From an uncultured archaeon (GTDB lineage: Archaea > Aenigmatarchaeota > Aenigmatarchaeia > CG10238-14 > SCSR01), in NCBI GenBank assembly GCA_964373665.1, contig CAYJVM010000002.1, positions 8,923 to 72,922 of the forward strand: DNA of 64,000 nt. Reading direction: 5' to 3'. The position numbers and the translations under genes were made by a program. Positions 6,081 through 57,509 of the stretch are shown in pieces. The notes under the pieces are model-generated. The model was not told the DNA's origin, made no database searches, and worked only from the letters and a program-made list of their open reading frames with translations. Numbering within the stretch: position 1 is the stretch's first letter; every line of letters starts with the position of its first letter.

Positions 6081-6081
6081 G

Positions 6082-7431: not shown

Positions 7432-7435
7432 GGAA

Positions 7436-8494
7436 TCATCCCGCACTCAAGACATGCTTGTACCAGTCTATCATTATTGATATCCCTCTATCCAAGCTAA
7501 CTGATGGGGTATATCCAACCACACCTTTCAGTTTCCCCAAGTCTGGACACCTTCTCTGCGGATTATCGACAGTATAGTCCTTGTCTGAATGGACTCGAAA
7601 TGTTACATCTACACCTTCTATCTTTCTCTGAACAAGTCTCGCAAGATCTAGCATGCTTATCTCCTTGTCGTTTCCAACGTTAAACTCCTCTCCTTTGTAA
7701 TCAGAAAGAAGAATTCTAAAGAATCCAATTATGGCGTCAGAGATGTAGCAAAAACTTCTTGTAGGCTTGCCGTCGCTGTAAAGCACTATCTCCTTATTCG
7801 TAATCGCTCCGCTCACAATGTCAGACACCACTCTTCCATCATTCGGCTTTATCCCAGGTCCGTAGACATTGAACGGCCTTGCTATATTGACAGGCAGCCC
7901 AAACTGGCGGAAGTAAGTCATGCACAGAGTTTCTCCCACTCTCTTCGACTCGTCATATGACGCACGTGGACCCGTGCATGAGACATTTCCCCTATAATTT
8001 TCCTTCGTCGGTATCTTTTCTGGCGGAGGGTCTCCGTATATCTCGCTGCTGCTGAGATAAAGAAAACCTTTGGCGTTGTCAGATTTTGCTATGTCAAGCA
8101 GATTCTTAGTCCCGTAAACATTCACTAGAATTGTCTGTAACGGGTATTTCCTGTAGACGATAGGCGACGCTATGCTTGCAGAATGAATTATGAAATCTAC
8201 CTTCTCGCCTAAAGACAAAACCTCTGATATGTCACTTTGTATTACTTTCAAGTTCTCAGTTGTGATGAACTCTGGAATATCAGTATTGACTTTCCCGTCT
8301 ATTACAATGACTCTGCAAGGTTTGGAAAAATAATTCTGGTTCAGGTACAAGAGCGTGTTGACTAAATACTTGCCTATAAATCCGTATCCGCCAGCCACTA
8401 AGACAGTAGTTCCTTCAAATCGTCTGGCCAAATCCTTTATGTCTTCGCATATGGTTTTCAGGTCATTTGACACGATAGGATGGATGACATTCAT
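7436..8494 (-). CDS. UDP-glucuronate decarboxylase-like SDR (UXS family)
   Basis: TVLVAGGYGFIGKYLV Rossmann fold; YDESKRVGETLC resembles UXS catalytic YDEGKRVAET. Confidence 0.65.
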   Translation of the reverse strand: MNVIHPIVSNDLKTICEDIKDLARRFEGTTVLVAGGYGFIGKYLVNTLLYLNQNYFSKPCRVIVIDGKVNTDIPEFITTENLKVIQSDISEVLSLGEKVDFIIHSASIASPIVYRKYPLQTILVNVYGTKNLLDIAKSDNAKGFLYLSSSEIYGDPPPEKIPTKENYRGNVSCTGPRASYDESKRVGETLCMTYFRQFGLPVNIARPFNVYGPGIKPNDGRVVSDIVSGAITNKEIVLYSDGKPTRSFCYISDAIIGFFRILLSDYKGEEFNVGNDKEISMLDLARLVQRKIEGVDVTFRVHSDKDYTVDNPQRRCPDLGKLKGVVGYTPSVSLDRGISIMIDWYKHVLSAG

Positions 8495-8558
8495 ACAAAC
8501 TTTTAAGGATTAAAATCTTTTAAGTTTATGCATTATCGAAACTTTATAAAATCGAATC

Positions 8559-40478: not shown

Positions 40479-42716
40479 ATGGCTGTTGAGTACGAGCTTG
40501 CCGATGGAGTAATCAGGATTAACTGCATGAACTGGGCGATAGCCCCAAGCGTGGAAGACTCGGAGGCGACTATGGCTGTTGTCATAGACACGCTCCTGAA
40601 AGTTCCTGATGCGCACCGCATAGTTCTGGTCGAGGCGCGAGAAAATGAATATGACGAAGACCAGACTAGGATGCTCAGGGAAATTGCGGATGCATATAAC
40701 AGGATAGTCAATATAGACAAGATTCTCAGCATCAAGAACCTTGGTCCGCCGGAATTCGAAAAGCTTTTCCCAAAAAGACTTGCGGATTTGCAGTTCCTTG
40801 TGTTGGAAGTCATGAGGAAAGATCCGATAGGCGCGTACATCAGGATCATAAAGATGGTGAACGCCAACAAGGTGCTTGAGAACACTGCCCCATTTGCGCA
40901 GAAAGCGGCTTTTTCATATTATATCGACAATGCACTAATCCCGATAAAAAATATTATTGAATCATCAAGCCTAATCAAAAAGGCTATGCCTGTCCTTCAA
41001 AACTATCGATTCGGCAGCAGGGACATTTACCGAGAAATATTCTCCCCGACAGTAAAGCCCAATTTCATGCTCACACGACTTATGCTTACAGTGCCGAAAG
41101 GCGCGAGAATGATGGAGAAGTACAGCATCAAGGGAGGCGAGATAGAGATTTACAAACTGCTTAACAAGGTGCGCCATCTTTATCATGTTACGCCGAAGGA
41201 GTTTGTTTTGAGCGACGAAAAGTATTCCATCCTGGACTCGGCGCGAAGATACCTCGCATCTCACAGGCCTACGGAAGCAGAGACAGTCGAGCCAGACAAA
41301 TCGCGGGAGCTCTTCAAAAATCTTGGCAAGGACCTCATAAAGGACGTGGCGCAGAGCATGAACGTAAAGCTGTCTGCGGATGAGATAGAAGAGCTGTCCA
41401 GCATACTGTCACGATACACGGCCGGCTATGGAGTTCTCGAGCTTTTGCTTTCCGACGAGAAAATCCAGGACATCTTCGTAAACTCGCCTATTGGGACAGT
41501 GCCGATATTCATAATACACGGAGACTATGAGGAATGCGAGACAAACTTGATACCGACTATGGGTGACGCGGAAGCGTGGGCCACAAGATTCAGGCTGTTT
41601 TCCGGAAGACCATTGGACGAATCCAATCCTGTGCTTGACACAGAACTGATTGTGCCTGGAGGAAAAGCAAGAGTGGCTGCAATAACAAGGACATTATCGC
41701 CGGAAGGGCTTGCATTCGCATTCAGGAGGCACAGAGAAAAGCCTTGGACGACGTCTTTGTTCATCAAGCACAAAATGATCGACTCTCTTTATTCCGGTGT
41801 GATGAATTTTGTAGTCGACGGCGGAAGAGCATTGCTTGTTGCCGGAGGCCGCGGTTCCGGGAAAACATCTCTGCTGAATGCACTAATGCTTGACATCATG
41901 CCCAAGTTCAGAATCCTTACAGTAGAAGACACACTTGAAATTATTGTGACGGACATGAGGAGATTGGGCTACAACATCGAAAGAATGAAGTCGAGATCGG
42001 TAATTACCAAGGTAGAGACTGAACTGCCGGCAGACGAAGCCCTGAGAACTGCACTGAGATTAGGCGATTCAGTCCTTATATTGGGGGAAGTCAGAAGTCT
42101 TGAAAGCCTTGCCTTGTTTGAAGCCATGAGAATAGGTGCTCTGGCGAATGTTGTCGCTGGCACGATTCACGGCGAATCTGCTTATGGAGTTTACGACAGG
42201 GTTGTGCATGACTTGGGCGTCCCTCCAACTAGCTTCAAGGCGATAGATCTGATCACTATTTGCAACCAGCTCAAGTCGCCCGACGGCCTGCACAGGTTCA
42301 GGAGAGTGACCGAACTGACGGAAGTGAGAAAGCAGTGGAAGAATGATCCGATGGACGAAGGAGGATTTGTCAATTTAATGGAGTATTCTGCGAAGGAAGA
42401 CATGCTAAAGCCGACTGCGACTTTGATCGACGGCGAGTCTCAGGTGCTGAATGAGATAGCAAAGAGAGTCAGGGAATGGAGGGGCCATTGGGATGTTGTG
42501 TGGGACAACATTTTATTAAGGGCGAAAATCAAGCAGACAATGGTGGAGCTTGCCGGGCAGTCGAACAAGCCGAATGTGCTGGAGGCCGACTATTCCGTCG
42601 AATCCAACTCCATGTTCCATCTATTTTCAGAGCAGGTGAGAGATGAGGTTGGGGGAATGGACTCGAAGATGATTTATGACAGATGGCTCGGATGGTTCAA
42701 AGGAAGGATAAAATAG
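40479..42716 (+). CDS. type IV pilus/archaellum-type secretion ATPase (FlaI/VirB11/TadA superfamily) with about 300-aa N-terminal extension
   Basis: Walker A GGRGSGKTSLLNAL, Asp box and His box regions; 745 aa. Confidence 0.75.
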   Translation: MAVEYELADGVIRINCMNWAIAPSVEDSEATMAVVIDTLLKVPDAHRIVLVEARENEYDEDQTRMLREIADAYNRIVNIDKILSIKNLGPPEFEKLFPKRLADLQFLVLEVMRKDPIGAYIRIIKMVNANKVLENTAPFAQKAAFSYYIDNALIPIKNIIESSSLIKKAMPVLQNYRFGSRDIYREIFSPTVKPNFMLTRLMLTVPKGARMMEKYSIKGGEIEIYKLLNKVRHLYHVTPKEFVLSDEKYSILDSARRYLASHRPTEAETVEPDKSRELFKNLGKDLIKDVAQSMNVKLSADEIEELSSILSRYTAGYGVLELLLSDEKIQDIFVNSPIGTVPIFIIHGDYEECETNLIPTMGDAEAWATRFRLFSGRPLDESNPVLDTELIVPGGKARVAAITRTLSPEGLAFAFRRHREKPWTTSLFIKHKMIDSLYSGVMNFVVDGGRALLVAGGRGSGKTSLLNALMLDIMPKFRILTVEDTLEIIVTDMRRLGYNIERMKSRSVITKVETELPADEALRTALRLGDSVLILGEVRSLESLALFEAMRIGALANVVAGTIHGESAYGVYDRVVHDLGVPPTSFKAIDLITICNQLKSPDGLHRFRRVTELTEVRKQWKNDPMDEGGFVNLMEYSAKEDMLKPTATLIDGESQVLNEIAKRVREWRGHWDVVWDNILLRAKIKQTMVELAGQSNKPNVLEADYSVESNSMFHLFSEQVRDEVGGMDSKMIYDRWLGWFKGRIK

Positions 42717-43144: not shown

Positions 43145-45109
43145 GTGGCTATAGTCTCAAGGGATTATGAACAGTTTCTCCGAGAGGAACAACTCGCGAA
43201 AAGATTGACGTTTTACGAGAGGCTATGTTCTTTATTAGAGTTTCTTCCATCACCTGTGACAAAGGGACTGAGGGAAAAATATACTGAAGCAATGGAATTC
43301 TCCCACATGAAGGCGTCGCCGAAAGGTGCATTCAACCTATCAATTCTGGGCACGTTGTTAATATTCGCAGCATCTCTATCACTCTTGTATTTCATCGATT
43401 CTTTCTCCCCAGGATCTGTTATTTTATCGCTTTTCATCGCTTCACTCGCATTTTACTTTCTTGTCAGCTATCCTTTGAGGTATGCGACAATTTTCAGGAT
43501 AAGCGCATCTTCGGAAATGGTTCTCGCGACAATATACATGAGCATTTCCATGCATATCTCGCCAAACTTGGAGAACGCTGTCAAGTTCGCTTCAAAAAAC
43601 TTGAAAGGGTCCCTCGCCAAAGACTTGAGGGGTCTTTTGTGGAATGTATACACACGCAAACACGATAGAATAGAGGACGCCTTCGACAATTTCGTCAAAA
43701 AATGGGAGCGTGAAAACAAAGAGTTCGCCACATCGCTATATCTTATTAAAAATTCCACTGCAGAATCACAGGCTAGACGCGAAAAGTTTCTTGACGAAGC
43801 AGTTTCTGTAATGCTTGAAGGGACAAAGGAGAGGATGCGAGGATATGCCCGAGAGCTAAAGGAACCGGTGACAATATTGAATGCGCTCGGCATACTGCTT
43901 CCGATAATAGGCCTGGTGTTCTTCCCGGTAATAAGCATCTTCCTGCCGGAAATTGTCAAGCCAGTGCTGCTGATTTTGGGCTATGACATTTTCCTCCCCC
44001 TGATAGTTTTCTTCCTTATGTCTAGCTATCTTGAAAAGCGTCCGTACAGCTTCCATCAGCCTGACCTTAGAAAGCATCCAGAGTTCTCTGTGGAGAAATT
44101 CTACGAAAAGCCTTACATAGTTCCTGTCCTAGTGTCCATACCGCTCCTTCTGTTTTCGGGATACAAAATGATAGGCCAAGAAGAAATCTTCAGCTTCGAG
44201 CTTCTGCTGTATTCTATGATAGCCAGCGTCGGAATAGCGGCTGGAGTGATAAGCTATTCCTATCTCTCTGTGCGGAGAAAGCTGAAAATCCGAAAGGAGA
44301 TATCGGACATAGAAGGTGAATTTGCAGAGGCGCTTTTCCAGCTCGGCAGCCTGATAATGCGCGGGATTCCACTTGAGGCAGCAATGAAGAGATCCAAGGA
44401 CCAGTCAAAGAACATGAAGATAGCAGACTTTTTCGACAAGATACTTTACAATATAAAGACTTTTGGAATGACTTTCGAAGACGCAGTTTTCCACAAAGAA
44501 TACGGTGCATTGAGATACTACCCGTCCACTCTCATAGAGGCTGTGATGAATGTCATAGCGGAGACATCGCAGAAGGGCATGCAGAGCGCATCCAAGTCGA
44601 TGGTCATAATTTCAAAATATCTAAAGGACATGCGTGAGGTGGACGATGAGCTGAAGAGCATGATGGAGGATGTGACGTCGACAATGAATACTCAAGCAAT
44701 CATGCTCGCACCGTTAAGCGCGGGTGTTGTCGTAACACTCGCCGCAATAATGACTCGACTTCTCATCAAGCTTGGCGAGTCCATAAAAGACATTTATTCT
44801 GGTCTTGGATCAGCCCTCGGTCCTGCGAGCGACTTGGGGGCAGGCGTCTTCGAGTCAATATTCAACATAAGCTCTATAATCCCAGTGCATGGGTTCCAGC
44901 TCATAGTCGGCATTTATCTTGTGGAGATTGTCACTTTGATAGCAGTAGCTGCCAGTACTATAACTAACGGAGAGGAGAATCTGCTGAAAAGGTTCAATAT
45001 CGCGAAGATACTTTTGTACAGCATGGTCGTCTATATAGTCACTCTTTTCGTCACATACTACATCTTCACTTCGGTAATTTCGATAGAAAACCTCACGGCC
45101 AATAGTTAA
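43145..45109 (+). CDS. FlaJ/TadC-like polytopic membrane platform protein
   Basis: 654 aa, two cytoplasmic T2SS-F-like domains separated by TM helices. Confidence 0.6.
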   Translation: MAIVSRDYEQFLREEQLAKRLTFYERLCSLLEFLPSPVTKGLREKYTEAMEFSHMKASPKGAFNLSILGTLLIFAASLSLLYFIDSFSPGSVILSLFIASLAFYFLVSYPLRYATIFRISASSEMVLATIYMSISMHISPNLENAVKFASKNLKGSLAKDLRGLLWNVYTRKHDRIEDAFDNFVKKWERENKEFATSLYLIKNSTAESQARREKFLDEAVSVMLEGTKERMRGYARELKEPVTILNALGILLPIIGLVFFPVISIFLPEIVKPVLLILGYDIFLPLIVFFLMSSYLEKRPYSFHQPDLRKHPEFSVEKFYEKPYIVPVLVSIPLLLFSGYKMIGQEEIFSFELLLYSMIASVGIAAGVISYSYLSVRRKLKIRKEISDIEGEFAEALFQLGSLIMRGIPLEAAMKRSKDQSKNMKIADFFDKILYNIKTFGMTFEDAVFHKEYGALRYYPSTLIEAVMNVIAETSQKGMQSASKSMVIISKYLKDMREVDDELKSMMEDVTSTMNTQAIMLAPLSAGVVVTLAAIMTRLLIKLGESIKDIYSGLGSALGPASDLGAGVFESIFNISSIIPVHGFQLIVGIYLVEIVTLIAVAASTITNGEENLLKRFNIAKILLYSMVVYIVTLFVTYYIFTSVISIENLTANS

Positions 45110-47743: not shown

Positions 47744-48142
47744 ATGCCAAAGGGTTATATAGCATCTGAGACATCGGTGCACTTCATGAATTATCATTTC
47801 GTGTGGTGTCCGAAGTATCGCAGGAAGATACTTGTCAGGGATGTCAAAAAGAGGTTGGAGAAATTGATACAGCAGAAGACAAAGGAACTGAATGGCGAAG
47901 TCCTATCTCTTGCGATAGGAGACGACCATGTTCATCTGTTCGTCAGGACTACTCCGACAATAGCTCCAAATTCCTTTATAGGAAAAGTAAAAGGGTTCAC
48001 GTCAAGAATACTGAGACAAGAGTTTCCGACTGTGAAATCAAGACTTCCGACGCTTTGGACTCGCTCATATTTCGTTTCAACGCATGGGCATATTTCGGAT
48101 GCAATGATAAAGAAGTACATTGACGAACAAAAGGGAATGTAG
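47744..48142 (+). CDS. tnpA: IS200/IS605 transposase TnpA (Y1 HUH)
   Basis: HVHLFV HUH motif and catalytic Tyr region; 132 aa. Confidence 0.85.
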   Translation: MPKGYIASETSVHFMNYHFVWCPKYRRKILVRDVKKRLEKLIQQKTKELNGEVLSLAIGDDHVHLFVRTTPTIAPNSFIGKVKGFTSRILRQEFPTVKSRLPTLWTRSYFVSTHGHISDAMIKKYIDEQKGM

Positions 48143-49279
48143 ATGAGAAATTATAGGTTCAGAATCTATCCATCGAAGATGCAAGAGAAGGAAATGCAGA
48201 AGCACCTATGGATAGAGAAGAATCTATGGAACATGCTTCTTGAAGTCAACGGAAAAACATACGACGAAACAAAGAAGTTTCTGACAAGGAATGAGATGCA
48301 GGTATTGGTCAAAAATTCAGGATTATTCTCTCAGACAGCACAAACTCTTTCTCATCGGTTGCAGAAAGCGTTATGGAGAATGGTCAAACTTCGAAAGCAG
48401 GGAAAGAAGTGTGGCTACCCAAGATTCAAGAGCATAGATAGAATAAAGAGTCTGAATTATCCGCAAGCGGGATTTAAGCTCGATAAAAAACTGAAGGTCA
48501 CTCCATTCGGCGAAATCAGCATAAAGAAACACCGAGACATCGAAGGCAGGATAAAAACTCTCACTTTGAAACGAGAATCTTCAGGCAAATGGTTCGCTAC
48601 TTTCTGTGCTGAAATCGAACCTCATATGCCAAAGATAAATCATGGAGAGAAAGTTGGTATCGACCTCGGACTTGCAAAATTCGCCATCCTTTCAAACAAG
48701 GAAGTCATAAAGAATCCGAGGCATCTGAAAAAATACGAGAAGAAGCTTGCATTATTGCAACAGAGATTATCAAAAAAGAAGAAAGGAAGCAAGAATAGGA
48801 AAAGAGCCAAGCATAAAGTCGCCTTACTATACGAGAAAGTTGCCAATACACGGACTGACTTCCTTCACAAGACTTCAACGAGACTCGTCAATAGTTATTC
48901 CCTTATAGCGCTTGAGAAGCTTGCGTCTCAGGAGATGTCACAACAAAACTACGGCAAGCAAATCAATGATGCTGGATGGAATATGTTTTCGAATATGGTT
49001 AGCTACAAAGCTGAAAATGCTGGTTGTCGAATCGTATTTGTGAATCCGCATAACACTACACAGGAATGTAGCAACTGCCATGAGATTGTGAAGAAAGGAC
49101 TGCAAGACAGGATACACGACTGTCCCAACTGCAATCTGGTAATGGACAGGGATTTGAACGCTGCAAAGAATATACTCATAAGAGCTACCGCAGGACTTGC
49201 GGGAAGTCAAGCTTCTGGAGATGGAGATTCATTGCCATCTTTGAAGGAAGAAGTCCACATCCTTCAGGGGTGGGAGTAG
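48143..49279 (+). CDS. tnpB: TnpB (IS605 OrfB) RNA-guided endonuclease
   Basis: N-terminal YRFRIYPS..QE; C-terminal Zn finger CSNCHE...CPNCN; RuvC-like residues. Confidence 0.85.
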   Translation: MRNYRFRIYPSKMQEKEMQKHLWIEKNLWNMLLEVNGKTYDETKKFLTRNEMQVLVKNSGLFSQTAQTLSHRLQKALWRMVKLRKQGKKCGYPRFKSIDRIKSLNYPQAGFKLDKKLKVTPFGEISIKKHRDIEGRIKTLTLKRESSGKWFATFCAEIEPHMPKINHGEKVGIDLGLAKFAILSNKEVIKNPRHLKKYEKKLALLQQRLSKKKKGSKNRKRAKHKVALLYEKVANTRTDFLHKTSTRLVNSYSLIALEKLASQEMSQQNYGKQINDAGWNMFSNMVSYKAENAGCRIVFVNPHNTTQECSNCHEIVKKGLQDRIHDCPNCNLVMDRDLNAAKNILIRATAGLAGSQASGDGDSLPSLKEEVHILQGWE

Positions 49280-49722: not shown

Positions 49723-51189
49723 ATGAGAACAAGTGTATTTTTTATTCTGTCATTGGTTTTAATTATTTCTTCCTTATATATCTTCATATACGCTACAACG
49801 GCTCAAACTAGTGCAAGTGTTATCTGGGCAGTAACTCCGGTAAATGTCAAGCCTCCAGATAAAATTACAGTTTACGTTCAAACTGTTAGTTCGGATATAA
49901 CAAATGTTAAGGTATGGATAGTAGGTTCCAAAGGCGCTTCTGTACCTCAGGAAGGCTGGAGTTTGTTGACCGAGAAAGCCTCCACCCCCATTACAGTCGA
50001 AATTTCTCCCGATAAATACACCGACTTTCCCCGCGTATATGTTGCTCTTGAACTTTATGAAGGTAACCAACTTGTAGCCACAGGCAACCCCAATTCAGTC
50101 GGCTACAATCCCAGTCTGATTAAAGAAGTTTTGGTTAACGCAGATGTATCAACAGTCGGCGTTGTTTGGAGCATGTCCCACCAAATCACGTCTTCACCTC
50201 AGTTCATCCAAGTCAATGTGGATTCGATCAGTGGCGATTTTGACGAGGTCAGAGTTTGGGCCGCAGGATCTACTGGCACAGATGCACCGCAAAGTGGCTG
50301 GACAAGATGGGCGAGTTGGCATTACCATACCTTGTCGCCTTCGATAAAAATTCCGACAAGAGAGTATATCGGCAGTTCTTACGTGTACATCGTCCTTGAT
50401 CTGGTCAAGGACGGCAAGGTGATAGTATCAGGATATCCCTATGTCGGGCATTATAACCCAGAACTGCGTAAAGAAGTGTCTGTTAGCTTGTCGAGACCTT
50501 CCATTCAGATCTCTTACAGAGATAGGGCGACTTCTGAAGAAAACATAACCGGCACAATATATGCTACAGCTGGAAACTTCGACGAAATCCGCATTTATGC
50601 AGCAGGTTCAAATGGTGATATGCCGATAGTAGGATGGACAAGATGGTATACAAAGACACCCACATCTGTGCCTTTCAACTATTCAATTCCTGCAAAAGAC
50701 TACAGGACATTTTCACGCGTATACCTCGTTTTCGATCTGGTCAAGGACGGCAAGGTGATAGCATCAGGATACAAATATTCTTCAGCATATAAAGCAGACC
50801 TCCAGGTACCAGTTGCTATTGGTACACAACCGCTCCCAGCTTCTCCATTCAATGCTACTTGGAGCGTCGCACCGACATCTGTAAGCATCCCTAACGAACT
50901 CGAGGTTAAAGTGGATTCTTCTACTGGCAATCCCGATAGAATACATGTTTGGTCAGCTGGCTCCAAAGATCAGAATTCTTGGCCGATAGTAGGATGGACA
51001 AGATGGACAAAAGACATAGCAACACCCACACCCTTCACAGTAAAAATAAAGAGTGATGATTATTCAGACTCTTCTATTGTATTCGTTGTTCTGGAACTGA
51101 CGAAAGGCGGCAACTTAGTAGCAACCGGAAATGCTAATGCCCCCAGCTATGATTCTAAGCTCCGTCGAGACATACAAATAACAAAATAA
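49723..51189 (+). CDS. secreted surface protein with four tandem repeats of about 110 aa
   Basis: signal peptide; repeats beginning VWIVGSKG / VRVWAAGSTG / IRIYAAGSNG / IHVWSAGSKD with conserved GWTRW and DLVKDGKVI blocks. Confidence 0.6.
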   Translation: MRTSVFFILSLVLIISSLYIFIYATTAQTSASVIWAVTPVNVKPPDKITVYVQTVSSDITNVKVWIVGSKGASVPQEGWSLLTEKASTPITVEISPDKYTDFPRVYVALELYEGNQLVATGNPNSVGYNPSLIKEVLVNADVSTVGVVWSMSHQITSSPQFIQVNVDSISGDFDEVRVWAAGSTGTDAPQSGWTRWASWHYHTLSPSIKIPTREYIGSSYVYIVLDLVKDGKVIVSGYPYVGHYNPELRKEVSVSLSRPSIQISYRDRATSEENITGTIYATAGNFDEIRIYAAGSNGDMPIVGWTRWYTKTPTSVPFNYSIPAKDYRTFSRVYLVFDLVKDGKVIASGYKYSSAYKADLQVPVAIGTQPLPASPFNATWSVAPTSVSIPNELEVKVDSSTGNPDRIHVWSAGSKDQNSWPIVGWTRWTKDIATPTPFTVKIKSDDYSDSSIVFVVLELTKGGNLVATGNANAPSYDSKLRRDIQITK

Positions 51190-51250
51190 TAGCATAAAGA
51201 CATTTTGTTATGGAAAAATAGAAAATGATACAAAACAATTAATAATGTGT

Positions 51251-51282
51251 CCAAAGCAGTCGCCGTCCAGGCAGTCTTCATG
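51251..51282 (+). repeat. direct repeat copy 1 (32 bp exact; imperfect extension 51240-51250), pilin 5'-end remnant
   Basis: ccaaagcagtcgccgtccaggcagtcttcatg identical to 52279-52310. Confidence 0.8.
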
Positions 51283-51322
51283 TTGATATATTTATATATC
51301 AGATGATATAATTTTATATCAT

Positions 51323-51850
51323 ATGTTACAAGATTACAACGTATATAGGATACTAAGACTCTTCTTTGATTCCCCGACAAAACATTTTCAACTTCGGGAA
51401 ATAAGCAGAATAACTAAAATTGGTTTACCAAGTGTGCGGAACCACGTCAAGAGGCTCGAAAGGCTTGGATTTGTGAAAAAAAAGAAAACATCCGTATACA
51501 CATCTTTTGTTTCAAATAGGGACGATGAAAAATTCCTTACTTATAAGAGAAGTGATACTCTAATTAGGCTCCATGAAACAGGTCTTGTTTCTTATTTGGC
51601 GGAGAAATCACTCCCTGATACAATAGTACTCTTTGGTTCATGCTCAAGAGGAGAAGATATCGAAACAAGCGACATAGATTTGTTCATTCAAGGACCAGAA
51701 GAAAAAATAGACTTGGGTCGGTTTGAAAGCAAATTGAAAAGAAAAATAAATTTGCTATTTGAAAACGACATAAAAGATATCTCAAACGAGCTAATGAACA
51801 ACATAATAAACGGAATCGTAATTTACGGTTATCTGAAGGTTTTGAAATGA
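51323..51850 (+). CDS. nucleotidyltransferase (MNT) with N-terminal wHTH domain
   Basis: IVLFGSCSRGEDIETSDIDLF GSx10DxD motif. Confidence 0.8.
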   Translation: MLQDYNVYRILRLFFDSPTKHFQLREISRITKIGLPSVRNHVKRLERLGFVKKKKTSVYTSFVSNRDDEKFLTYKRSDTLIRLHETGLVSYLAEKSLPDTIVLFGSCSRGEDIETSDIDLFIQGPEEKIDLGRFESKLKRKINLLFENDIKDISNELMNNIINGIVIYGYLKVLK

Positions 51851-52272
51851 AAGAGTGGGAAGAGGTTGAAGCTGAAGTCTGGAAAACAACTCCAGATAAA
51901 GAAATGACTCGCTCTATACTAAAGATGGCAGACGTAAGATTACGTGCTATAGAATCCTTAAATAAAAAAGAATTCATGTCAATAATAGTAGAAAACTATT
52001 ACGAGGTCATTAAAGAATTGATAACTGCCTTAATGTCTGCAGATGGCCTCAAAACGCTTAGGCACGAAGTCTTAATAGTATATTTGAAAAAGTTTCACAA
52101 AAGTTTCGACAGAGGCGAATTATTCATTATCGATCAATTAAGGCAGACAAGAAATAAAATCGTGTATAAAGGATTTTTCGTGCAGGAAGCTTATTTGGAA
52201 AGAAATGAAAATAAGTTAAGGATGATAATAGAAAAACCACGAAAAATAATAACGCAAAAGCTCGGTTATTAA
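51847..52272 (+). CDS. HEPN domain protein
   Basis: 141 aa, overlaps MNT by 4 nt, helical; typical HEPN-MNT pair. Confidence 0.65.
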   Translation: MKEWEEVEAEVWKTTPDKEMTRSILKMADVRLRAIESLNKKEFMSIIVENYYEVIKELITALMSADGLKTLRHEVLIVYLKKFHKSFDRGELFIIDQLRQTRNKIVYKGFFVQEAYLERNENKLRMIIEKPRKIITQKLGY

Positions 52273-52274
52273 TT

Positions 52275-52574
52275 ATGCCCAAAGCAGTCGCCGTCCAGGC
52301 AGTCTTCATGATTGGAGTAATCGCTATAACATTGTTCTTTATAGTCGCCATATTCGCCCAATGGATCGACATAACAAAATGGGGAGCCAATGAGGCCGCC
52401 TGCACAGCCAAAAAAACCAGCTACTGCAGCAACTGGATAGTTAGAAGCCAATGCACTAAATGGGAAGTGGAATGTGGAACAGTCCCGTCCAGAGAGCAGT
52501 GCTGCACAGAAGTTCTCCGCAGAAACTCGGACGACCCTTTATGTGTGAAAGCACCCACATGCCCAAGTTCTTAA
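52275..52574 (+). CDS. small Cys-containing pilin-like protein (paralog)
   Basis: MPKAVAVQAVFMIGVIAITLFFIVAIF; conserved C..C pattern. Confidence 0.55.
   Translation: MPKAVAVQAVFMIGVIAITLFFIVAIFAQWIDITKWGANEAACTAKKTSYCSNWIVRSQCTKWEVECGTVPSREQCCTEVLRRNSDDPLCVKAPTCPSS
52279..52310 (+). repeat. direct repeat copy 2 (inside intact pilin-like gene start)
   Basis: identical 32-mer. Confidence 0.8.
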
Positions 52575-52598: not shown

Positions 52599-53213
52599 AT
52601 GAAAGGCGCTGTGGCCGCTGATGCCCTCATCAACGTTGGTTTTATAGTAATTTCAGTTGCCCTCCTCGCCACACAAGCACCTGCAATGATAAACGACATC
52701 AACGTTGTTTTGACGCATGAGAAAGTGACTAACGAGGCGAGGGAAATTTCCAACATGCTTAGCATCGCGAAGAACGCTCCTGATGAAATCAAAATTACAC
52801 ACACCATGCCCTCGGATGACTATAGTGTTAGGATAGGAAAAGATGGTGTTGTCGAAGTGTGTGACGATAGTTACTGTGGAAAATCAGAATCATTCGTCCA
52901 GTTTGAAGAGGAACTCGACGAGAGTGACGTTGGCCACATCAGCATAACAAAGAGCGTGGAAGATGGAGTATCAGTAGTGGACGTGTCCAAGATATCTATT
53001 TTGGCTGCATCTGTTGGAGCATCCGAATGCATAGAGTATGCTGTAGTTACCGGGGATACATTGTGGGACATTGCAATAGAATTTTACGGGGACGGCGTCA
53101 AGTGGCCGATAATATATGAAGCCAATAAAGAGGTCATAGGCGACAATCCAAACCTAATTCTCGTAGGTCAGGTGCTTTGCATACCTGAGATTTCTTCGGA
53201 GGGAACTGGATGA
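52599..53213 (+). CDS. pilin-like/secreted protein with C-terminal LysM domain
   Basis: YAVVTGDTLWDIAIEFYGDGVKWPIIYEANKEVIGDNPNLILVGQVLCIP LysM consensus. Confidence 0.75.
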   Translation: MKGAVAADALINVGFIVISVALLATQAPAMINDINVVLTHEKVTNEAREISNMLSIAKNAPDEIKITHTMPSDDYSVRIGKDGVVEVCDDSYCGKSESFVQFEEELDESDVGHISITKSVEDGVSVVDVSKISILAASVGASECIEYAVVTGDTLWDIAIEFYGDGVKWPIIYEANKEVIGDNPNLILVGQVLCIPEISSEGTG

Positions 53214-53806
53214 ACAGAAAAGGAACGTCGTACATAGTGCCCTTATTCTCCCTTCTTTTCACAGGCGTCCTAGCGCTCACTATGGCCTACATCCTGCCTT
53301 CGCAGTACGTCAGCATAACACAAGTCATAGACCACAAGGAGTTTGAGAACAAGGCGATGATTCTAGGAAACTTGTTGTTGTCCAATCACGATCTGGTTTA
53401 TTTCGATGACCCTGTATATTACCGCGGAGTGTTCGAAAAAGACAAGCTTGATGAAAAAATGGTTCAGAAAAGCGATTTTGGAAATGTTGAAAAGTTGATG
53501 GAGTGTACACAGCTATGCGATTCATTAAAGGCACTGCCAGGCTCTGTCGGTTTTGTTCTAATCTCCGACGCCGCTAATTCTGACGAGTGGTACTCTATCC
53601 TGTATCCAAACGGAGATCGCCCTGATATAGAAAGATGTTTCGGACAGCTTTCAGAAGCGATTTTGGAAAAGATATTCGACAGCAATGGTTTGCAGGAATG
53701 CGGATATAGTTCGTCAACAATACTTACCGAGTCATTCGCCGCAAGCATTAGGTATTCCGACGACGAAATAAAGGTAGGCAGGATAAGGATAGTGATGGTA
53801 GAATGA
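53210..53806 (+). CDS. pilin-like N-terminus hypothetical protein
   Basis: MNRKGTSYIVPLFSLLFTGVLALTMAYIL. Confidence 0.4.
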   Translation: MNRKGTSYIVPLFSLLFTGVLALTMAYILPSQYVSITQVIDHKEFENKAMILGNLLLSNHDLVYFDDPVYYRGVFEKDKLDEKMVQKSDFGNVEKLMECTQLCDSLKALPGSVGFVLISDAANSDEWYSILYPNGDRPDIERCFGQLSEAILEKIFDSNGLQECGYSSSTILTESFAASIRYSDDEIKVGRIRIVMVE

Positions 53807-55860
53807 AATCGATGGCTGAACTTCCACTCATCGGTCTGATAGGCACCATGACGATAATGGCATCAATAATCATACCGCCTACAATAGTAAAGACGGCGTT
53901 GGACCAGGAGCTGGGCTACACGTACGATTACGAGAAGAGCCAAAACGCTTTACTGTCTCTCCTGTATTCAAAGGAAGGTGGTGTAAGCAATTATGAACAG
54001 CTAGGTACTAGTTACGTCCTTAACCAGCCGATAGGAGGTGGGATACAAAACCAGTTAGAGACGCTAGTAGGAAGCGAGTATTCAGTGGTAATATCAGATG
54101 TAAGCGACGGTTCCGTTACTCCACTAGTCGCTGATCCTGACATCCAAGTAGGTTCGGAAGTTCCTGTTCTTGTCTTGAAATATTTCCCTATGGACAGTAC
54201 CAAGAAAAGACTTGATTCTGCCCAGACAGGTGGAAGAGCCGATACCCTAGAAACAATAAGACTGAAAGTCGATACCGCAACTGCTCAAGGCATTTCTGCA
54301 ATGACAAAAGCAAGTATCTACAAAGGCTATAAAAATTCTAACGTACAGCCGTATCTAAGATACTATATTTTTGAGGAAAAGGAATTTCTCACAAATATAC
54401 CCAAATCTTCCGAATTTCCTCCCTTTGCCGATCACGAAAAAGTGCTTTCTGATTTGAACATTTGCGATTATATTGACAGAAAAGGGGTGAAGCAAGTATG
54501 GATTTGGATGTGGCATACCAAAGATCTGGTTCCTCTGGAATCCAATATGGCGATGGGCATGAATTCAAAAGAGTTCTGGAATTTCGAAGCTTACGGTGAC
54601 GTGAGTAATAGCTTTAGGCAAAATGATCTTCCGGCATGCCAGAATACGTATACGGTATTTGAATATAATTCTGATATAAATCTGGTCGGGGAGGGCCTTG
54701 GGGGAGTAATGGAGGACCACGGGCACCAGATAGAACACATATTGAACTGGGTAGATGGCAGGGATGATACACCGAAAGAGAAATGGGGCGACCTTCTTTT
54801 TTGGGGCGAATTTGTTGGAAGCGACAGTTCACACAAGATAGTTAATCCTGGATGCGGCTGGACGCACTACAGCCCAAACTCAATCGAAGATTATGACTGG
54901 CAGAATGAAAATGATGTTCTCTCCGATTGTGAGAACTGGAAACCTGACGGAACTGCCCAGAAAACTACGATTGACTGCCATGAATGGTACGGCAAGAATT
55001 GCAAAGACGACGGAGGCGCAGCTTGGAAAAAATGGTGGATGCAAAACATCCCAGGAAAAGATAACGGCTTGATTTACAATGAAAGGAAGTTGAGAAATTG
55101 GTGGGAGTTCATAGGAGATTTTGATAGTGCTCTAGACAAAGGCAAGAACCTGCTTGGCGAATCAGTTTCACTTACCCCGTTGACTACAGGCGGATACTTG
55201 CTTACAGGCGAATCATCAGAATACTCGAGTTCAATCACAGGAAAAGTTACCACCCCCCCAATTTCAAGTGGTATATGCGCTTTGGCCATAGACGGTTCGT
55301 GTACGTCAAGCAATCTACAAACAACCTGCTTCAGCGGAAGGGAGCTTGAAGCATCGCAGATATGCAAGGCGGAAAGCGGTGGCAATCCAGAATCACTCAG
55401 CAGGAGTGATGTGTGTCAGGACGGAACCCCATTTTCTATAGGATTATTCCAAATAAATTTAGTTTGCCATGGAACTAAAGTGGATCCAGAATGTCAAGGC
55501 ATATTTGATGTAGGGTGTGGTGAATTAAGATACATCAAGGACAGAAATGTATACAACTGTCGTCTCATAGACAAGTCCAAGTATGATATGTGTGTACAAA
55601 AACTAAAGGACGCTAGCGCAAACATCCAAGTAGCATGCCAGATATCCAATAATGGAAACAACTGGTGTCCTTGGACTGCTGCTAAAGTGTGTGGTTTCTG
55701 CAGCGAAACTGGCACACCAGCAAGACCACCAGCAAGTTCGACTCCAGGAAAAACTCTATTGGGAAATGAAAAATTCTCTAGAGTCGTCTTTAACACAGTG
55801 TTCGTTGTTCCTTTCAACAGCGAATCTTTGGTGAAAATTATGAGGATTGGTTTGGCATGA
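53803..55860 (+). CDS. large secreted/pilin-like protein with C-terminal GH23 (SLT) lytic transglycosylase-like domain
   Basis: AESGGNPESLSRSD...GTPFSIGLFQIN matches SLT ES...GLMQ motif. Confidence 0.65.
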   Translation: MKSMAELPLIGLIGTMTIMASIIIPPTIVKTALDQELGYTYDYEKSQNALLSLLYSKEGGVSNYEQLGTSYVLNQPIGGGIQNQLETLVGSEYSVVISDVSDGSVTPLVADPDIQVGSEVPVLVLKYFPMDSTKKRLDSAQTGGRADTLETIRLKVDTATAQGISAMTKASIYKGYKNSNVQPYLRYYIFEEKEFLTNIPKSSEFPPFADHEKVLSDLNICDYIDRKGVKQVWIWMWHTKDLVPLESNMAMGMNSKEFWNFEAYGDVSNSFRQNDLPACQNTYTVFEYNSDINLVGEGLGGVMEDHGHQIEHILNWVDGRDDTPKEKWGDLLFWGEFVGSDSSHKIVNPGCGWTHYSPNSIEDYDWQNENDVLSDCENWKPDGTAQKTTIDCHEWYGKNCKDDGGAAWKKWWMQNIPGKDNGLIYNERKLRNWWEFIGDFDSALDKGKNLLGESVSLTPLTTGGYLLTGESSEYSSSITGKVTTPPISSGICALAIDGSCTSSNLQTTCFSGRELEASQICKAESGGNPESLSRSDVCQDGTPFSIGLFQINLVCHGTKVDPECQGIFDVGCGELRYIKDRNVYNCRLIDKSKYDMCVQKLKDASANIQVACQISNNGNNWCPWTAAKVCGFCSETGTPARPPASSTPGKTLLGNEKFSRVVFNTVFVVPFNSESLVKIMRIGLA

Positions 55861-57509
55861 AGGCGGCAGTAAACACGGCGCTAGTGGCGTCAGCAAGCGT
55901 ATTGGCTTTTATCGGAGTGTTTTCTCTAGGCCTTGTGCAACAATCTGAGATTATCCTGAAGGATTTGAATGAGAGGTCTGTTATGGAAAGCATAAACCAG
56001 ATGGAATTCGCCAAAATGGCGGTTCGGCAGTCGGCTATTTATTCAACACACCAAAGCGTTTACGAGACTATCAAGTATGGATACTATTCCACAACAGGAT
56101 GCGACGCGGACAGTTTCGGTGGCATTCCATATTGGAGAACTTTTGACAGCGAATGTCCACCCATTGCACTTGAGACAGACCTGACTGAAAACCTTCAGCA
56201 GAGATTCGATTCGTATTTGATGTCATTGAAACTGCAGGTCGAAAAAATCGGGATTACAATACCCCATATAAAAATCCAAGTCCGGAGCATTGCCGACAAT
56301 GAAATCATTTTGCAGCCAGCATCTACCGAGAAAATCAGGCTCACCGGCAGGAATGTTGAGATAAATGACTTTCCTGACCTCAGGGAGAACGTAAAGATGG
56401 GGATATCTGATATCATCCAATTTGCCATGCAGAAATTTGTCCTTGTCGATTCCTTATTGATGGAGATAGATAAAGCGGAAGATCAGATGCCAAAAGAATG
56501 CAAGGAGATAACAGTGACAAGGTGTATAGCTCCGCCCGTAGAAACTAAAAAAGACCTTCTAAACCAGCAATGTCCCAATGCGCTCGGCAAGTATGAAAAT
56601 CTGATAAGGGAAAATGTGGCTGGACTCGATTCCAGTCTTGATTCAGCCAGCATGGACACGAAGTTAACGATAACGGGAATAAAGTCAAAGGTCGACACTG
56701 AGCCTGGGGACGAACCATCGACATGTACTGTTACATCGGCAGAGGATGTGAGGTGTGGATGCAAAAGGTCAGGGCAATTCGGTTGCTTGGAGTATTATCC
56801 AAAATACACAAAGACATGCACCTATGACTATTCGGCAAGCATGAATACGCTGGTCAACATAGTCAATAAAATAAAGGCATACACTGTTTACGACGCGCTT
56901 GTTAGAACCACCGATTCAAGGAATTTGGAATTGAACTTTTATGTCGCGAGCGGCGACAGCTCCCTAGGATTTCCTGAAGGCACGCCAGTTTTCTATTCGC
57001 CTCCATTCGAAAAGATTGGATGGATTTCAGAGCCATCAAGTCCGGTTGACACATCTGGTCTGCCTTCCGATTGTCCGTCTATCTGGCCTGTGCAAAGCGG
57101 ATATGTCAATCAAGGACCCGGAGGCAGCGCTTCACACAGCAATCCGATACTTGAAGCGATTGATATTCATGCGAGAACAGGGACACCAGTCTACACCACC
57201 CACGATGGCATAGTCACAGGCGCTGGAGTGGATAGCTATGGCGGATGGTACGTTAAAATAGCGGGTAATTGTAATGGGAAATCGTTCAGTAGCCTTTACG
57301 TCCATTTCGTCAGCAACAGCCTAACTGTAAAGGTCGGTGATAGTGTAACGAAAGGCACTAAAATCGGTGCTCTCGGCTGTACGGGAATATGCGGCGACCC
57401 GCACGTGCACTATGAGTTCAGAGGCCTGACAATGAAACACCCAGAGATCCCCAAAGATGTTCCTAGAAACTGTGTGGGTGCAACATCATGCCGTGTGGAG
57501 ATAGCTTAA
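55857..57509 (+). CDS. secreted M23 (LytM-type) metalloendopeptidase
   Basis: HSNPILEAIDIHARTGTPVYTTHDG ... GDPHVHYEF: HxxxD and HxH M23 motifs. Confidence 0.8.
   Translation: MKAAVNTALVASASVLAFIGVFSLGLVQQSEIILKDLNERSVMESINQMEFAKMAVRQSAIYSTHQSVYETIKYGYYSTTGCDADSFGGIPYWRTFDSECPPIALETDLTENLQQRFDSYLMSLKLQVEKIGITIPHIKIQVRSIADNEIILQPASTEKIRLTGRNVEINDFPDLRENVKMGISDIIQFAMQKFVLVDSLLMEIDKAEDQMPKECKEITVTRCIAPPVETKKDLLNQQCPNALGKYENLIRENVAGLDSSLDSASMDTKLTITGIKSKVDTEPGDEPSTCTVTSAEDVRCGCKRSGQFGCLEYYPKYTKTCTYDYSASMNTLVNIVNKIKAYTVYDALVRTTDSRNLELNFYVASGDSSLGFPEGTPVFYSPPFEKIGWISEPSSPVDTSGLPSDCPSIWPVQSGYVNQGPGGSASHSNPILEAIDIHARTGTPVYTTHDGIVTGAGVDSYGGWYVKIAGNCNGKSFSSLYVHFVSNSLTVKVGDSVTKGTKIGALGCTGICGDPHVHYEFRGLTMKHPEIPKDVPRNCVGATSCRVEIA

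Follow-up and report, generated by a model that had tools for sequence, protein, structure and literature searches.

The window, i.e., the whole stretch of 64,000 nucleotides analysed here, came from an uncultured archaeon and contained a type-IV-pilus-like locus with T2SSE and T2SSF genes and several pilin-like paralogues with similar N-termini (Table 1). The intact pilin-2 gene of this locus encoded a protein with a class III signal pattern, namely an N-terminus that was short and basic, a [KR][GA] cleavage motif and then about 20 aa of hydrophobic helix, as judged by motif-level inspection. No pilin or archaellin HMM from Pfam or NCBIfam matched this protein. Its putative 'pilin-like' label is based on an N-terminus resembling a class III signal and on the presence of T2SSE and T2SSF genes nearby. 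The pilin-2 homologues in Aenigmarchaeota were 51-66% identical, with the N-terminal segment being the best-conserved part, and the synteny of the pilus-like locus was kept in the genomes L002, L007, and L013. An exact database look-up of the pilin-2 protein gave no match, and a metagenome scan with the pilin-2 alignment gave no confirmed locus.

The start of pilin-2 was present twice. In agreement with an earlier sequence-only reading of this DNA, the 32-mer CCAAAGCAGTCGCCGTCCAGGCAGTCTTCATG occurred in exactly two copies in the window, both on the + strand, and no further copy was found there at up to 3 mismatches. Since 100 dinucleotide shuffles produced 0 matches, the repeat was far beyond chance. 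Without gaps it extended to 35 nt with 1 mismatch (51248-51282 vs. 52276-52310), and, as read from the sequence, a 2-nt indel may carry it to an upstream ATTAAT-N-ATG (51238-51282 vs. 52268-52310); the 32-mer is just a part of the duplicated stretch. The right copy had been described as the start of the intact ORF, and it did lie within the first 12 codons of pilin-2. The left copy had been taken for a frameshifted remnant of a pilin gene. It was a remnant, but the frameshift held only relative to an ATG at 51245, which was out of frame. Read from the GTG at 51247, the sequence was in frame and encoded MSKAVAVQAVFM followed by LIYLYIR and a stop codon (51304-51306), which was the MSK type seen in relatives.

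Between the two 32-mers there were two co-oriented ORFs with a 4-nt overlap and no other genes. This insert (cassette 1) contained neither a transposase or integrase gene nor any further mobile element. The ORF at 51323-51850 matched the Polbeta and NTP_transf_2 families, contained the minimal nucleotidyltransferase (MNT) motif hG[GS]...D.D as GSCSRGEDIETSDIDLF, and had an N-terminal HTH_IclR match (23 bits, residues 9-53). Against the NCBIfam MntA model (NF047752) it scored 25.8 bits, under the cut-off of 60. Upstream of this wHTH-MNT gene were two perfect palindromes, TGATATAT-TT-ATATATCA (51284-51301) and TGATATAA-TT-TTATATCA (51304-51321), and a TATA-like TTTATATA at 51291-51298, about 30 nt 5' of the MNT ATG. 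This predicted promoter/operator region was nearly invariant across L013, L071, L072, and L075 despite near-saturated silent sites. The wHTH domain may bind the palindromes and thereby autoregulate the cassette.

The partner ORF (51847-52272) had no Pfam family above cut-off; its match to PF05168 was below threshold (E 0.03, 14.9 bits, cut-off 22), and the same family was the commonest sub-threshold one among the partner homologues (10/29). An AF2 model, for which database homologues were used, had a pLDDT of 95.7. HEPN domains dominated the Foldseek matches of this model, the best being 2hsb with a TM of 0.61-0.68, at weak E-values (best 0.013). A profile-versus-PDB sequence search with the partner returned designed helical proteins only and no HEPN. 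Homologue alignments revealed invariant residues Y52, G67, H73, R99, R102, N103, Y107, and G109. The Rx4-6H motif was absent from the partner: RNKIVY (R-x4-Y) was in its place with no His 4-6 residues after the Arg, and H73 was located elsewhere. According to the predicted structure, the partner is probably a HEPN-fold protein without the canonical motif. The earlier description of one wHTH-MNT plus HEPN pair between the repeats was right about exactly two ORFs and, by fold, probably about HEPN. Cassette 1 would function as a toxin-antitoxin (addiction) module. Because the pilin-2 ATG was located 2 nt past the stop codon of the HEPN-fold gene, pilin-2 is probably co-transcribed with the cassette.

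A second MNT-HEPN cassette was present about 10 kb away in the same window, with its insert (62041-62789) between exact 56-nt repeats. Its HEPN protein was a clear match to PF05168 (70 bits, E 2.5e-19), and the stop codon of the HEPN gene was inside the right repeat. The MNT of cassette 2 scored 42.2 bits against MntA NF047752, also under the cut-off of 60. The corresponding empty sites, with the Alba gene directly before the PCMT gene and one repeat copy, were found in L007 and L013. Cassette GC content was 0.32-0.37 vs. 0.43-0.48 in the flanks.

Table 1. Features of the two cassette sites and of the surrounding pilus-like locus (window positions)
Feature	Position	Strand	Basis or remark
T2SSE gene	40479-42716		62 bits
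T2SSF gene	43145-45109		26 bits
IS200/IS605 TnpA-TnpB pair	47744-49279		2 kb upstream of the site, outside the repeats
Left remnant of pilin-2 5' end	51247-51306	+	sequence; compared with MSK-type starts of L002 and L013
Left 32-nt direct repeat copy	51251-51282	+	exact match
Cassette 1 promoter/operator region (predicted)	51284-51321	+	sequence, inverted repeat
wHTH-MNT gene, 175 aa	51323-51850	+	Pfam PF18765 39.5 bits, PF01909 37.5 bits, each over the cut-off
HEPN-fold partner gene, 141 aa	51847-52272	+	AlphaFold model and Foldseek
Intact pilin-2 gene encoding 99 aa (MPKA|VAVQAVFMIGVIAITLFFIVAIFA...; C-terminus rich in Cys)	52275-52574	+	ORF; pilus-like locus
Right 32-nt direct repeat copy	52279-52310	+	exact match; inside pilin-2 codons 2-12
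Left 56-nt exact repeat	61985-62040	+	3'-terminal 27 nt of Alba gene (61727-62014), its stop codon, and 26 nt of T-rich downstream sequence
Minimal MNT (62043-62477) and classical HEPN (62404-62799)	62043-62799	+	Pfam PF18765 52 bits, PF01909 50 bits
Right 56-nt exact repeat	62790-62845	+	just upstream of PCMT gene

Occupied and empty sites in related genomes

If cassette 1 had been inserted with duplication of its target, as the sequence-only reading proposed, relatives without it were expected to carry a single repeat copy. Such empty-site alleles were found in L002 and L007-L012 (Aenigmarchaeota), where pilin-1 was directly followed by a single pilin-2 start and neither the cassette nor a remnant was present. 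The closest relative was L002 (ATPase 87% identical). We also looked for the opposite situation, ancestral tandem pilin genes and no empty site. Empty sites existed, and two full tandem pilin-2 genes were seen in no relative examined.

The cassette 1 arrangement with a left remnant was also present in four divergent lineages (L013/L014, L071, L072-L074, and L075), where the repeats had decayed. In all five occupied lineages, the HEPN stop codon was 0-5 nt from the pilin-2 ATG, and no 3' remnant of an upstream pilin-2 copy was found at the site. Protein identity between the occupied lineages was 66-80% for the cassette and 31-72% for the flanks, and the cassette identities were roughly star-like, which was compatible with vertical descent. 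Identity at the four-fold degenerate sites of orthologous cassettes was 0.15-0.65, where 0.28 would be random and the samples were small (n = 11-23). The silent sites were near-saturated, and therefore the arrangement, which at least five divergent lineages shared, was old in the clade; the insertion in the source lineage, judged from these comparisons, likewise looks old. Occupied and empty sites were present in both sub-clades, a pattern that calls for a minimum of two losses or of two gains. The closest pair of cassettes was L013-L071 (79% and 77% aa identity, four-fold identity 0.57-0.64), while their flanking genes were not especially close.

The left remnants were 64-83% identical between lineages, whereas a single old event would predict decay. 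Repeated insertion events or selective constraint on the left remnants may be behind this. The left remnant was clearly nearer to its own right copy in the window (34/36) and more weakly so in L013 (31/36); in L071 and L072 the left remnants were no closer to their own right copies than to the copies of other genomes. General concerted evolution of the two copies was unsupported: the window was the one clear case, and L013 a weaker one. A duplication of about 70 nt ancestral to every lineage held only for L075, where the remnant spanned about 66 nt of pilin-2 (0/500 shuffles reached the score), and the tails in L013 and L071 were non-significant. Similarly, the left S versus right P found in the window and in L013 was not a universal difference, being reversed in L072 and replaced by S in both copies in L071 and L075.

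Bracketed cassettes elsewhere and known systems

The sequence-only reading had suggested a search for other MNT-HEPN pairs between duplicated gene ends, and this search was positive, with cassette 2 and 14 independent cases elsewhere. Flanking repeats scoring at least 20 were found in 17/104 related cassettes, or 14 of about 99 independent events, from many archaeal phyla, against 10/1172 control positions (odds ratio 19, p 1.1e-10). No flanking repeat was detectable for about 85% of the cassettes in this survey. The repeats were derived from the host, 21-80 nt long, unrelated in sequence between events, and always abutting the cassette, and in most bracketed cases they contained start or stop codons of the neighbouring genes. 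Among 15 bracketed cassettes there were no conserved termini or terminal inverted repeats. Some of the control repeat pairs were the N-termini of tandem paralogues (e.g., L057 and L154). The bracketed loci carried MNT-HEPN, PIN-RHH, and ParE-like pairs as well as AAA_14-DUF4143 ATPases. At the L078/L081 locus, at least five copies of one repeat of about 40 nt were located between successive cassettes in an array-like order.

Insertion that duplicates a long stretch of the target is known for bacterial restriction-modification genes (Nobusato et al. 2000, Gene 259:99; Furuta, Abe and Kobayashi 2010, NAR 38:2428, PMC2853133). In the latter study, long repeats were those of >30 bp, their lengths lay between 46 nt and about 420 nt, and no archaeal case survived the screen (PMC2853133). 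The cassettes described here resembled those insertions in being small addiction-type units without a transposase or integrase, bounded by direct repeats longer than transposase duplications. Moreover, the repeat was single-copy at the empty site (L002 and L007-L012 for cassette 1, L007 and L013 for cassette 2), its length and sequence were specific to each event, and it often extended across a start or stop codon with the neighbouring gene left intact. They differed in their archaeal hosts, in their cargo (MNT-HEPN here, and PIN-RHH, ParE-like, or AAA_14-DUF4143 elsewhere), in having repeats of mostly 21-80 nt, and in that the event in the window looks old, with repeats that were probably homogenised. 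Furuta et al. proposed that DNA breaks made by the restriction enzyme drive insertion (PMC2853133). This idea was inapplicable here because the cargoes were not restriction-modification genes or DNA nucleases.

MNT-HEPN modules have been described as mobile predicted toxin-antitoxin systems, with recent insertions into syntenic loci in Deinococcus and in Thermus HB8 vs. HB27 (Makarova, Wolf and Koonin 2009, PMC2701414). Like those modules (COG1708/COG2250 type), the cassettes consisted of adjacent small genes with a patchy distribution. Unlike them, the MNT of cassette 1 had a built-in N-terminal wHTH, and its partner missed the Pfam HEPN cut-off; flanking repeats or an insertion footprint were unmentioned in that text, where 'direct repeat' and 'flanked' had 0 occurrences (PMC2701414). 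The combination of a Pol-beta-type MNT and an adjacent HEPN-fold protein was shared with type VII HepT-MntA (Shewanella, Aphanizomenon; PDB 6m6u, 7bxo, 5yep, 7ae9). HepT-MntA structures were among the fold matches of the partner, and NCBIfam MntA was the top match of both MNTs, but both were below its equivalog cut-off. Further differences were that the MNT gene came first and carried a fused wHTH, and that the cassette 1 partner had no Rx4-6H and was best matched by the fold of the AF_0298 (PF05168) type, not HepT (DUF86).

Ghaly and colleagues are said to have reported integrons in archaea in 2022. Integron cassettes are likewise small promoter-to-stop units that often encode toxin-antitoxin pairs, and the L078/L081 array with its shared repeat was reminiscent of them. 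In contrast to integron cassettes, our repeats were host gene ends that differed wholly between loci and had no attC-like hairpin, and no integrase was seen beside the cassettes.

Origin of the direct repeats

Of the two origins offered by the sequence-only reading, insertion with target duplication was supported by the empty sites, the lack of a tandem pair, and the recurrence elsewhere, whereas recombination between paralogous pilin starts was less fitting given the single pilin-2 in the empty-site genomes. We consider it probable that the 32-mers are the remains of an old long target duplication that was made by cassette insertion at the pilin-2 5' end and later homogenised. A compact promoter-to-stop unit (two operators, the wHTH-MNT gene, and the HEPN-fold gene) would have been inserted there, and the duplication would have kept an intact pilin-2 downstream and a truncated copy upstream. 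The insertion probably came about through a host-mediated process (break repair or template switching), after which intact neighbours were selected for. Because the insertion looks old, the 32/32 identity was read as a later event, and later homogenisation or homology-guided re-entry is more likely than a fresh scar. Gene conversion between the copies would account for the exact 32-nt identity. Recombination between the same repeats could also delete the cassette precisely and thus create empty sites, while addiction activity, if present, would explain why the cassette persists.

A rather unlikely alternative to this old insertion is that the window copy arrived recently: the cassette with one repeat would have been excised as a circle and re-entered relatives by a single (Campbell-type) crossover at the pilin-2 5' end, with the 32-mer as a fresh product. 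The perfect repeat next to near-saturated silent sites between orthologous cassettes would be expected in this case, and the conserved N-terminal segment of pilin would be the best landing pad. Occupation of one site in both sub-clades with interleaved empty sites, the left remnants of L071 and L072 that were not closest to their own right copies, and the close L013/L071 cassettes in flanks that were not especially close also pointed in this direction. However, a scan of viral_contigs with the MNT alignment revealed neither a circular nor an extrachromosomal copy, and in look-ups with the MNT and the partner the only other record of the exact cassette was a Logan unitig of 1056 nt with the repeat at its ends. 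The star-like identities fitted vertical descent as well, the four-fold samples were small, and such spread left the first insertion and the unrelated repeats at other sites unexplained.

It is very unlikely that the cassette replaced the body of an upstream pilin-2 gene and that the repeats are the starts of two tandem paralogues. The similar N-termini of the pilin-like paralogues in the locus, the tandem-paralogue origin of the control repeats in L057 and L154, and the length of the L075 remnant were in line with such decay. Against it were the empty-site genomes with their single pilin-2, and the missing 3' remnant together with the tight HEPN-pilin-2 junction in five lineages. Furthermore, cassettes at unrelated sites had the same tight bracket, in some cases made of duplicated 3' gene ends, for which paralogy is no explanation.

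Similarly improbable is site-specific recombination, in which the repeats would be attL/attR or attC-like sites for an integrase or a recombinase of the integron type whose gene lies elsewhere. Repeats of 20-90 nt were within the att core range, the L078/L081 locus had its repeat array, and an IS200/IS605 TnpA-TnpB pair was located 2 kb upstream. On the other hand, IS200/IS605 elements insert without target duplication, and the repeats were host gene ends of 21-80 nt that were unrelated between loci. In DNA folding, the repeats of the window, L078, L094, and L044 had no hairpin whose stability exceeded that of shuffled sequence (z -1.0 to +0.05). A tRNA-type att site was excluded because the window was without tRNA or structured RNA, with tRNA and Rfam searches of its whole length being empty. 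The ORFs near the site were also scanned, and no recombinase was found in or beside the insert and no integron integrase among them.

The integrated structure in the source genome rests on the assembly, and the independent k=31 unitig L001, which was exactly the cassette bounded by the repeat and was present in ERR4904390 and three other samples, fits either integration or a circle plus an empty site. Metagenome assemblers usually run k well above 32. An artefact, in which the assembler would have spliced a circle of about 1 kb with one 32-mer into the chromosome where the pilin start matches it, is extremely unlikely: a 32-nt repeat is beyond the resolution of a k=31 graph and an empty site, if it existed, would still have pilin-2 in frame from GTG, but four other lineages were integrated likewise with diverged repeats that an assembler could not collapse, and cassette 2 in the window had the same anatomy.

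Implications for recombinase-less cassettes

Toxin-antitoxin modules are among the most mobile prokaryotic genes, yet they have no recombinase, and how they enter chromosomes is an old question. A literature search on archaeal toxin-antitoxin cassettes with flanking repeats found nothing specific. Archaeal MNT-HEPN cassettes often bear a precise footprint, namely a promoter-to-stop unit and a duplicated host gene end of 21-80 nt, and this footprint looks like a trace of the way in which these recombinase-less cassettes enter genomes. It ties the archaeal cassettes to the bacterial insertions with long target duplications, for which restriction cleavage is no longer a necessary cause.

More broadly, and tentatively, archaeal addiction-type cassettes of DPANN and other hosts might form a recombinase-less mobile class that is inserted by the host at gene boundaries with long duplications of variable length. 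In this class the repeats would serve excision, array amplification as at L078/L081, and re-entry into relatives guided by homology. If true, their life cycle would resemble one that was once put forward for restriction-modification genes without ever being demonstrated. The locus described here offers defined junctions, matched empty sites, and repeats from which excision circles, precise cassette loss, and gene conversion can be predicted. Finally, the cassette was located in the pilus operon of an episymbiotic DPANN archaeon, directly 5' of a pilin gene, and may therefore couple pilin expression to a putatively autoregulated addiction module.

Cassette 1 and the duplicated start of pilin-2

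Homologues of the 99-aa protein encoded by pilin-2, the gene that follows cassette 1, assigned the window to Candidatus Aenigmarchaeota. The locus encoded a T2SSE ATPase, a platform protein similar to T2SSF and several small proteins whose N-termini resembled class III signals, together with LysM, lysozyme-like and M23 peptidase proteins. The sequence-only reading had called such genes pilin-like; the motif and the neighbourhood agreed with this, but no curated model matched.

As had been claimed, the 32-mer CCAAAGCAGTCGCCGTCCAGGCAGTCTTCATG had exactly two copies in the 64-kb window (51251-51282 and 52279-52310). A third copy was not found at ≤3 mismatches, and shuffled sequence contained no match. 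Without gaps the repeat was 35 nt long with one mismatch and, when a 2-nt indel was permitted, both copies also had ATTAAT-N-ATG upstream (51238-51282 versus 52268-52310). The right copy formed codons 2-12 of ORF 52275-52574 (99 aa, MPKAVAVQAVFMIGV...) and is thus the start of an intact gene. The left copy had been described as a frameshifted remnant. It was out of frame from ATG 51245, but from GTG 51247 it read in frame as MSKAVAVQAVFM with a stop 7 codons on, and we therefore consider it a truncated version of the 'MSK'-type gene start of relatives; the term frameshifted is thus only partly correct.

The single wHTH-MNT and HEPN pair noticed between the copies was also recovered, in a compact unit of ~990 nt with a GC content of 0.32-0.37 versus 0.43-0.48 in the surroundings. 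A TATA-like box lay amid two palindromes, ~30 nt upstream of the first ATG of the cassette; these palindromes are probably the operators at which the wHTH domain represses the cassette promoter. Since pilin-2 began 2 nt past the HEPN stop, it is probably transcribed together with the cassette, and also by read-through from the native promoter that precedes the remnant.

A Pfam search of the 141-aa product of the HEPN-fold gene gave nothing above cut-off. Its alignment-based AlphaFold model was confident (pLDDT 95.7), and the closest structures were HEPN domains, namely AF_0298 (2hsb, TM 0.61-0.68), YutE, MntA-HepT complexes, TT1696 and the sacsin HEPN, all with weak E-values. PF05168 was the most frequent sub-threshold Pfam family in its homologues (10/29). 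Residues Y52, G67, H73, R99, R102, N103, Y107 and G109 were invariant in the family, the motif of which was R-x4-Y and not the canonical Rx4-6H. Neither MNT protein of cassettes 1 and 2 reached the NCBIfam MntA cut-off. Thus, cassette 1 is best described as an MNT-HEPN-type module with presumed toxin-antitoxin activity, and not as a proven member of the characterised type VII HepT-MntA family.

Features of the two cassettes, of the pilus locus and of control positions with bracketed cargo
Feature	Coordinates	Description
IS200/IS605 element	window 47744-49279	Y1 TnpA 47744-48142, TnpB 48143-49279; outside repeats
Palindrome 1, perfect	window 51284-51301	TGATATAT-TT-ATATATCA; within first 40 nt of unit
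Palindrome 2, perfect	window 51304-51321	TGATATAA-TT-TTATATCA; within first 40 nt of unit
wHTH-MNT gene, cassette 1	window 51323-51850	wHTH N-terminus and minimal nucleotidyltransferase domain; PF18765, PF01909 above cut-off
HEPN-fold gene, cassette 1	window 51847-52272	141 aa; 4-nt overlap with wHTH-MNT gene
Exact 56-nt direct repeat	window 61985-62040 and 62790-62845	brackets cassette 2
Minimal MNT, cassette 2	window 62043-62477	
Classical HEPN, cassette 2	window 62404-62799	PF05168, 70 bits
PIN_4+RHH_1 pair	L013 18035-18993	bracketed, control 'hit'
AAA_14-DUF4143 ATPase	L013 5952-7471	bracketed, control 'hit'
AAA_14-DUF4143 ATPase, second case	L064 1930-3434	bracketed, control 'hit'
ParE-like pair	L113 66-1447	bracketed, control 'hit'
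Second wHTH-MNT/HEPN pair of L061	L061 3877-5231	bracketed, control 'hit'

The IS200/IS605 element lay between the pilus platform genes and pilin-1, the pilin-like gene upstream, 2 kb upstream of cassette 1; the related loci L002, L007 and L013 had other genes at the equivalent position. Between pilin-1 and cassette 1 was a 488-aa ORF (49723-51189), for which a family search gave no match; it was made up of about four repeats, each roughly 112-120 aa long (DNA repeats spaced 336 and 360 nt). In L002, L007 and L013 pilin-1 stood immediately before pilin-2 or the cassette. In the operon downstream of pilin-2 (52599-57509), the LysM, lysozyme-like (SLT_3) and M23 peptidase proteins had N-termini like those of pilins. 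Such domains are directed at peptidoglycan, and their presence in an archaeon may reflect contact with a bacterial host. In L013 a DUF2683/ParE-YafQ-like pair and the AAA_14-DUF4143 ATPase had accumulated between a pilus platform gene and pilin-1 (5088-8550). In this clade, small cassettes thus seem to land preferentially in the pilus locus.

Empty and occupied sites in related Aenigmarchaeota

The comparison with relatives lacking the cassette, proposed in the sequence-only reading, revealed empty sites. The closest relative, L002 (GCA_016181005.1), had an ATPase 87% and a pilin-2 66% identical to those of the window, and its pilin-1 was followed by one pilin-2 start (ATGTCCAAAGCAGTCGCAGTTCAGGCAGTCTTCATC) with neither cassette nor remnant. 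The loci L007-L012 were empty in the same way. Occupied sites were found in L013/L014 (GCA_053536295.1), L071, L072-L074 (GCA_964384135.1) and L075, and both sub-clades contained occupied and empty sites. Every occupied relative had the order pilin-2 start remnant, operators, wHTH-MNT, HEPN-fold gene and pilin-2, with 0-5 nt from the HEPN stop to the pilin-2 ATG. The cassette proteins were 66-80% identical among occupied relatives and to the window; the flanking proteins were 44-72% (pilin-2) and 31-47% (next gene) identical. The 40-nt operator region was almost invariant among occupied lineages, and four-fold degenerate sites of the cassette genes were near saturation (identity 0.15-0.65; random 0.28). 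Given such divergent lineages and near-saturated silent sites, the arrangement is old and common to several lineages.

The left and right copies agreed at 34/36 positions in the window (32 contiguous) and at 24-31/36 in other lineages, and left remnants were 64-83% identical between lineages. Because silent sites were saturated, this remnant identity is far above neutral decay since one old event; either the remnants are replaced from time to time by the sequence of the coding copy (gene conversion), or they had several origins, or they are under constraint. Their differences had a weak codon-position bias (25:12:31, from pairs that were not independent). We favour conversion or other recombination between the copies as the source of the perfect 32-mer. 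The L075 remnant was ~66 nt long (its score was reached by 0/500 shuffles), so the original duplication exceeded 32 nt in at least that lineage. The L075 pilin-2 copy downstream of the cassette (2142-2253) was cut to ~36 codons, and both copies there may be decaying.

Bracketed cassettes in the window and in other archaea

A search for other MNT-HEPN pairs with duplicated gene ends, also suggested previously, gave cases in the same window and in other archaea. Cassette 2 was bracketed by the 3' end of an Alba gene (its final 27 nt and its stop codon) plus 26 nt of T-rich downstream sequence, and its HEPN stop codon fell within the right copy. In L007 and L013 a PCMT gene directly followed Alba, with a single copy of the 56-nt sequence.

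When genome and metagenome collections were scanned with the MNT, 136 additional loci were obtained, in Methanoperedens, Bathyarchaeota, Woese-, Pace-, Nano- and Undinarchaeota, Anstonellales and others. Flanking repeats (ungapped, score ≥20) were present in 17 of 104 testable cassettes; as independent events, this was 14 of ~99 cassettes versus 10 of 1172 control positions matched in geometry (odds ratio 19, p 1.1e-10). Several of these control 'hits' turned out to be bracketed cassettes too, with cargo of other kinds, and their host-derived direct repeats were 27-94 nt long.

The anatomy of bracketed cassettes was constant across cases. The left repeat ended just outside the promoter, 24-93 nt upstream of the MNT ATG (typically 37-43 nt), and the right repeat began 0-43 nt past the HEPN stop or cut into it. 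The repeats were 21-80 nt long (80 nt in L044, an exact 59 nt in L094), were mutually unrelated with host-like composition, and mostly contained a start or stop codon of a neighbouring gene. Conserved termini were not found among the bracketed cassettes, and the repeats folded, those of the window, L044, L078 and L094, gave no hairpin more stable than in shuffled sequence. At L078 75-3296 and L081 2075-4001, at least five copies of one ~40-nt repeat (TCATATCTTTCCTATCGTAAAGCCGAAATAAAAGGATT), resembling a promoter and start codon on the minus strand, were spaced 752-1360 nt apart with one cassette per interval: a wHTH-MNT+HEPN pair, an unknown 190-aa gene, and a HEPN and nucleotidyltransferase pair on the other strand. 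This array could have arisen by amplification or by serial insertion at a single hot spot.

Probable insertion with long target duplication and its rivals

It has previously been reported that restriction-modification genes undergo 'insertion with long target duplication', first in Helicobacter pylori and later in other bacteria (Nobusato et al. 2000; Furuta et al. 2010, PMC2853133). It was defined by repeats of >30 bp that varied in length, by empty sites with only one copy and by the lack of a mobility gene. Translation starts or stops were often covered by the repeats, so that the target gene stayed intact. The screen yielded no archaeal case, and its authors proposed the involvement of restriction-enzyme breaks (PMC2853133). 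Recent MNT-HEPN insertions were documented by Makarova et al. 2009 (PMC2701414), without flanking repeats, and our literature searches found the pattern described neither for toxin-antitoxin cassettes nor for archaea. The archaeal MNT-HEPN cassettes showed the same pattern, in line with a little-studied but known kind of insertion. Empty sites and recurrence elsewhere supported and generalised the target duplication first suggested for cassette 1, with the correction that the event was old and the 32-mer probably a homogenised part of the duplication.

Alternatively, an excised circle may re-enter, guided by homology, at the conserved pilin start, which is plausible although we consider it rather improbable. 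The integrated form in the window's genome is as assembled and needs read-level confirmation, the independent k=31 unitig L001 being uninformative on it. An assembly artefact is unlikely because other lineages had the same arrangement with diverged repeats. Site-specific or integron-type recombination at the repeats was contradicted by their unrelated, unstructured and variable-length sequences. A decayed tandem paralogue as the source of the repeats was contradicted by the empty sites, the junctions and the cassettes with duplicated 3' gene ends; two full tandem pilin-2 genes occurred in none of the genomes compared.

In contrast to the restriction-modification cargo of the precedent, the present cargoes are not DNA nucleases, which argues that the mechanism must be cargo-independent. 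Insertion with target duplication probably proceeds by host break repair or template switching, and the insertions would then probably be filtered by selection for intact neighbours in compact genomes. Through the repeats the cassette could be deleted precisely, which would yield empty sites. An addiction phenotype would act against this loss and might account for why the cassette has persisted so long.
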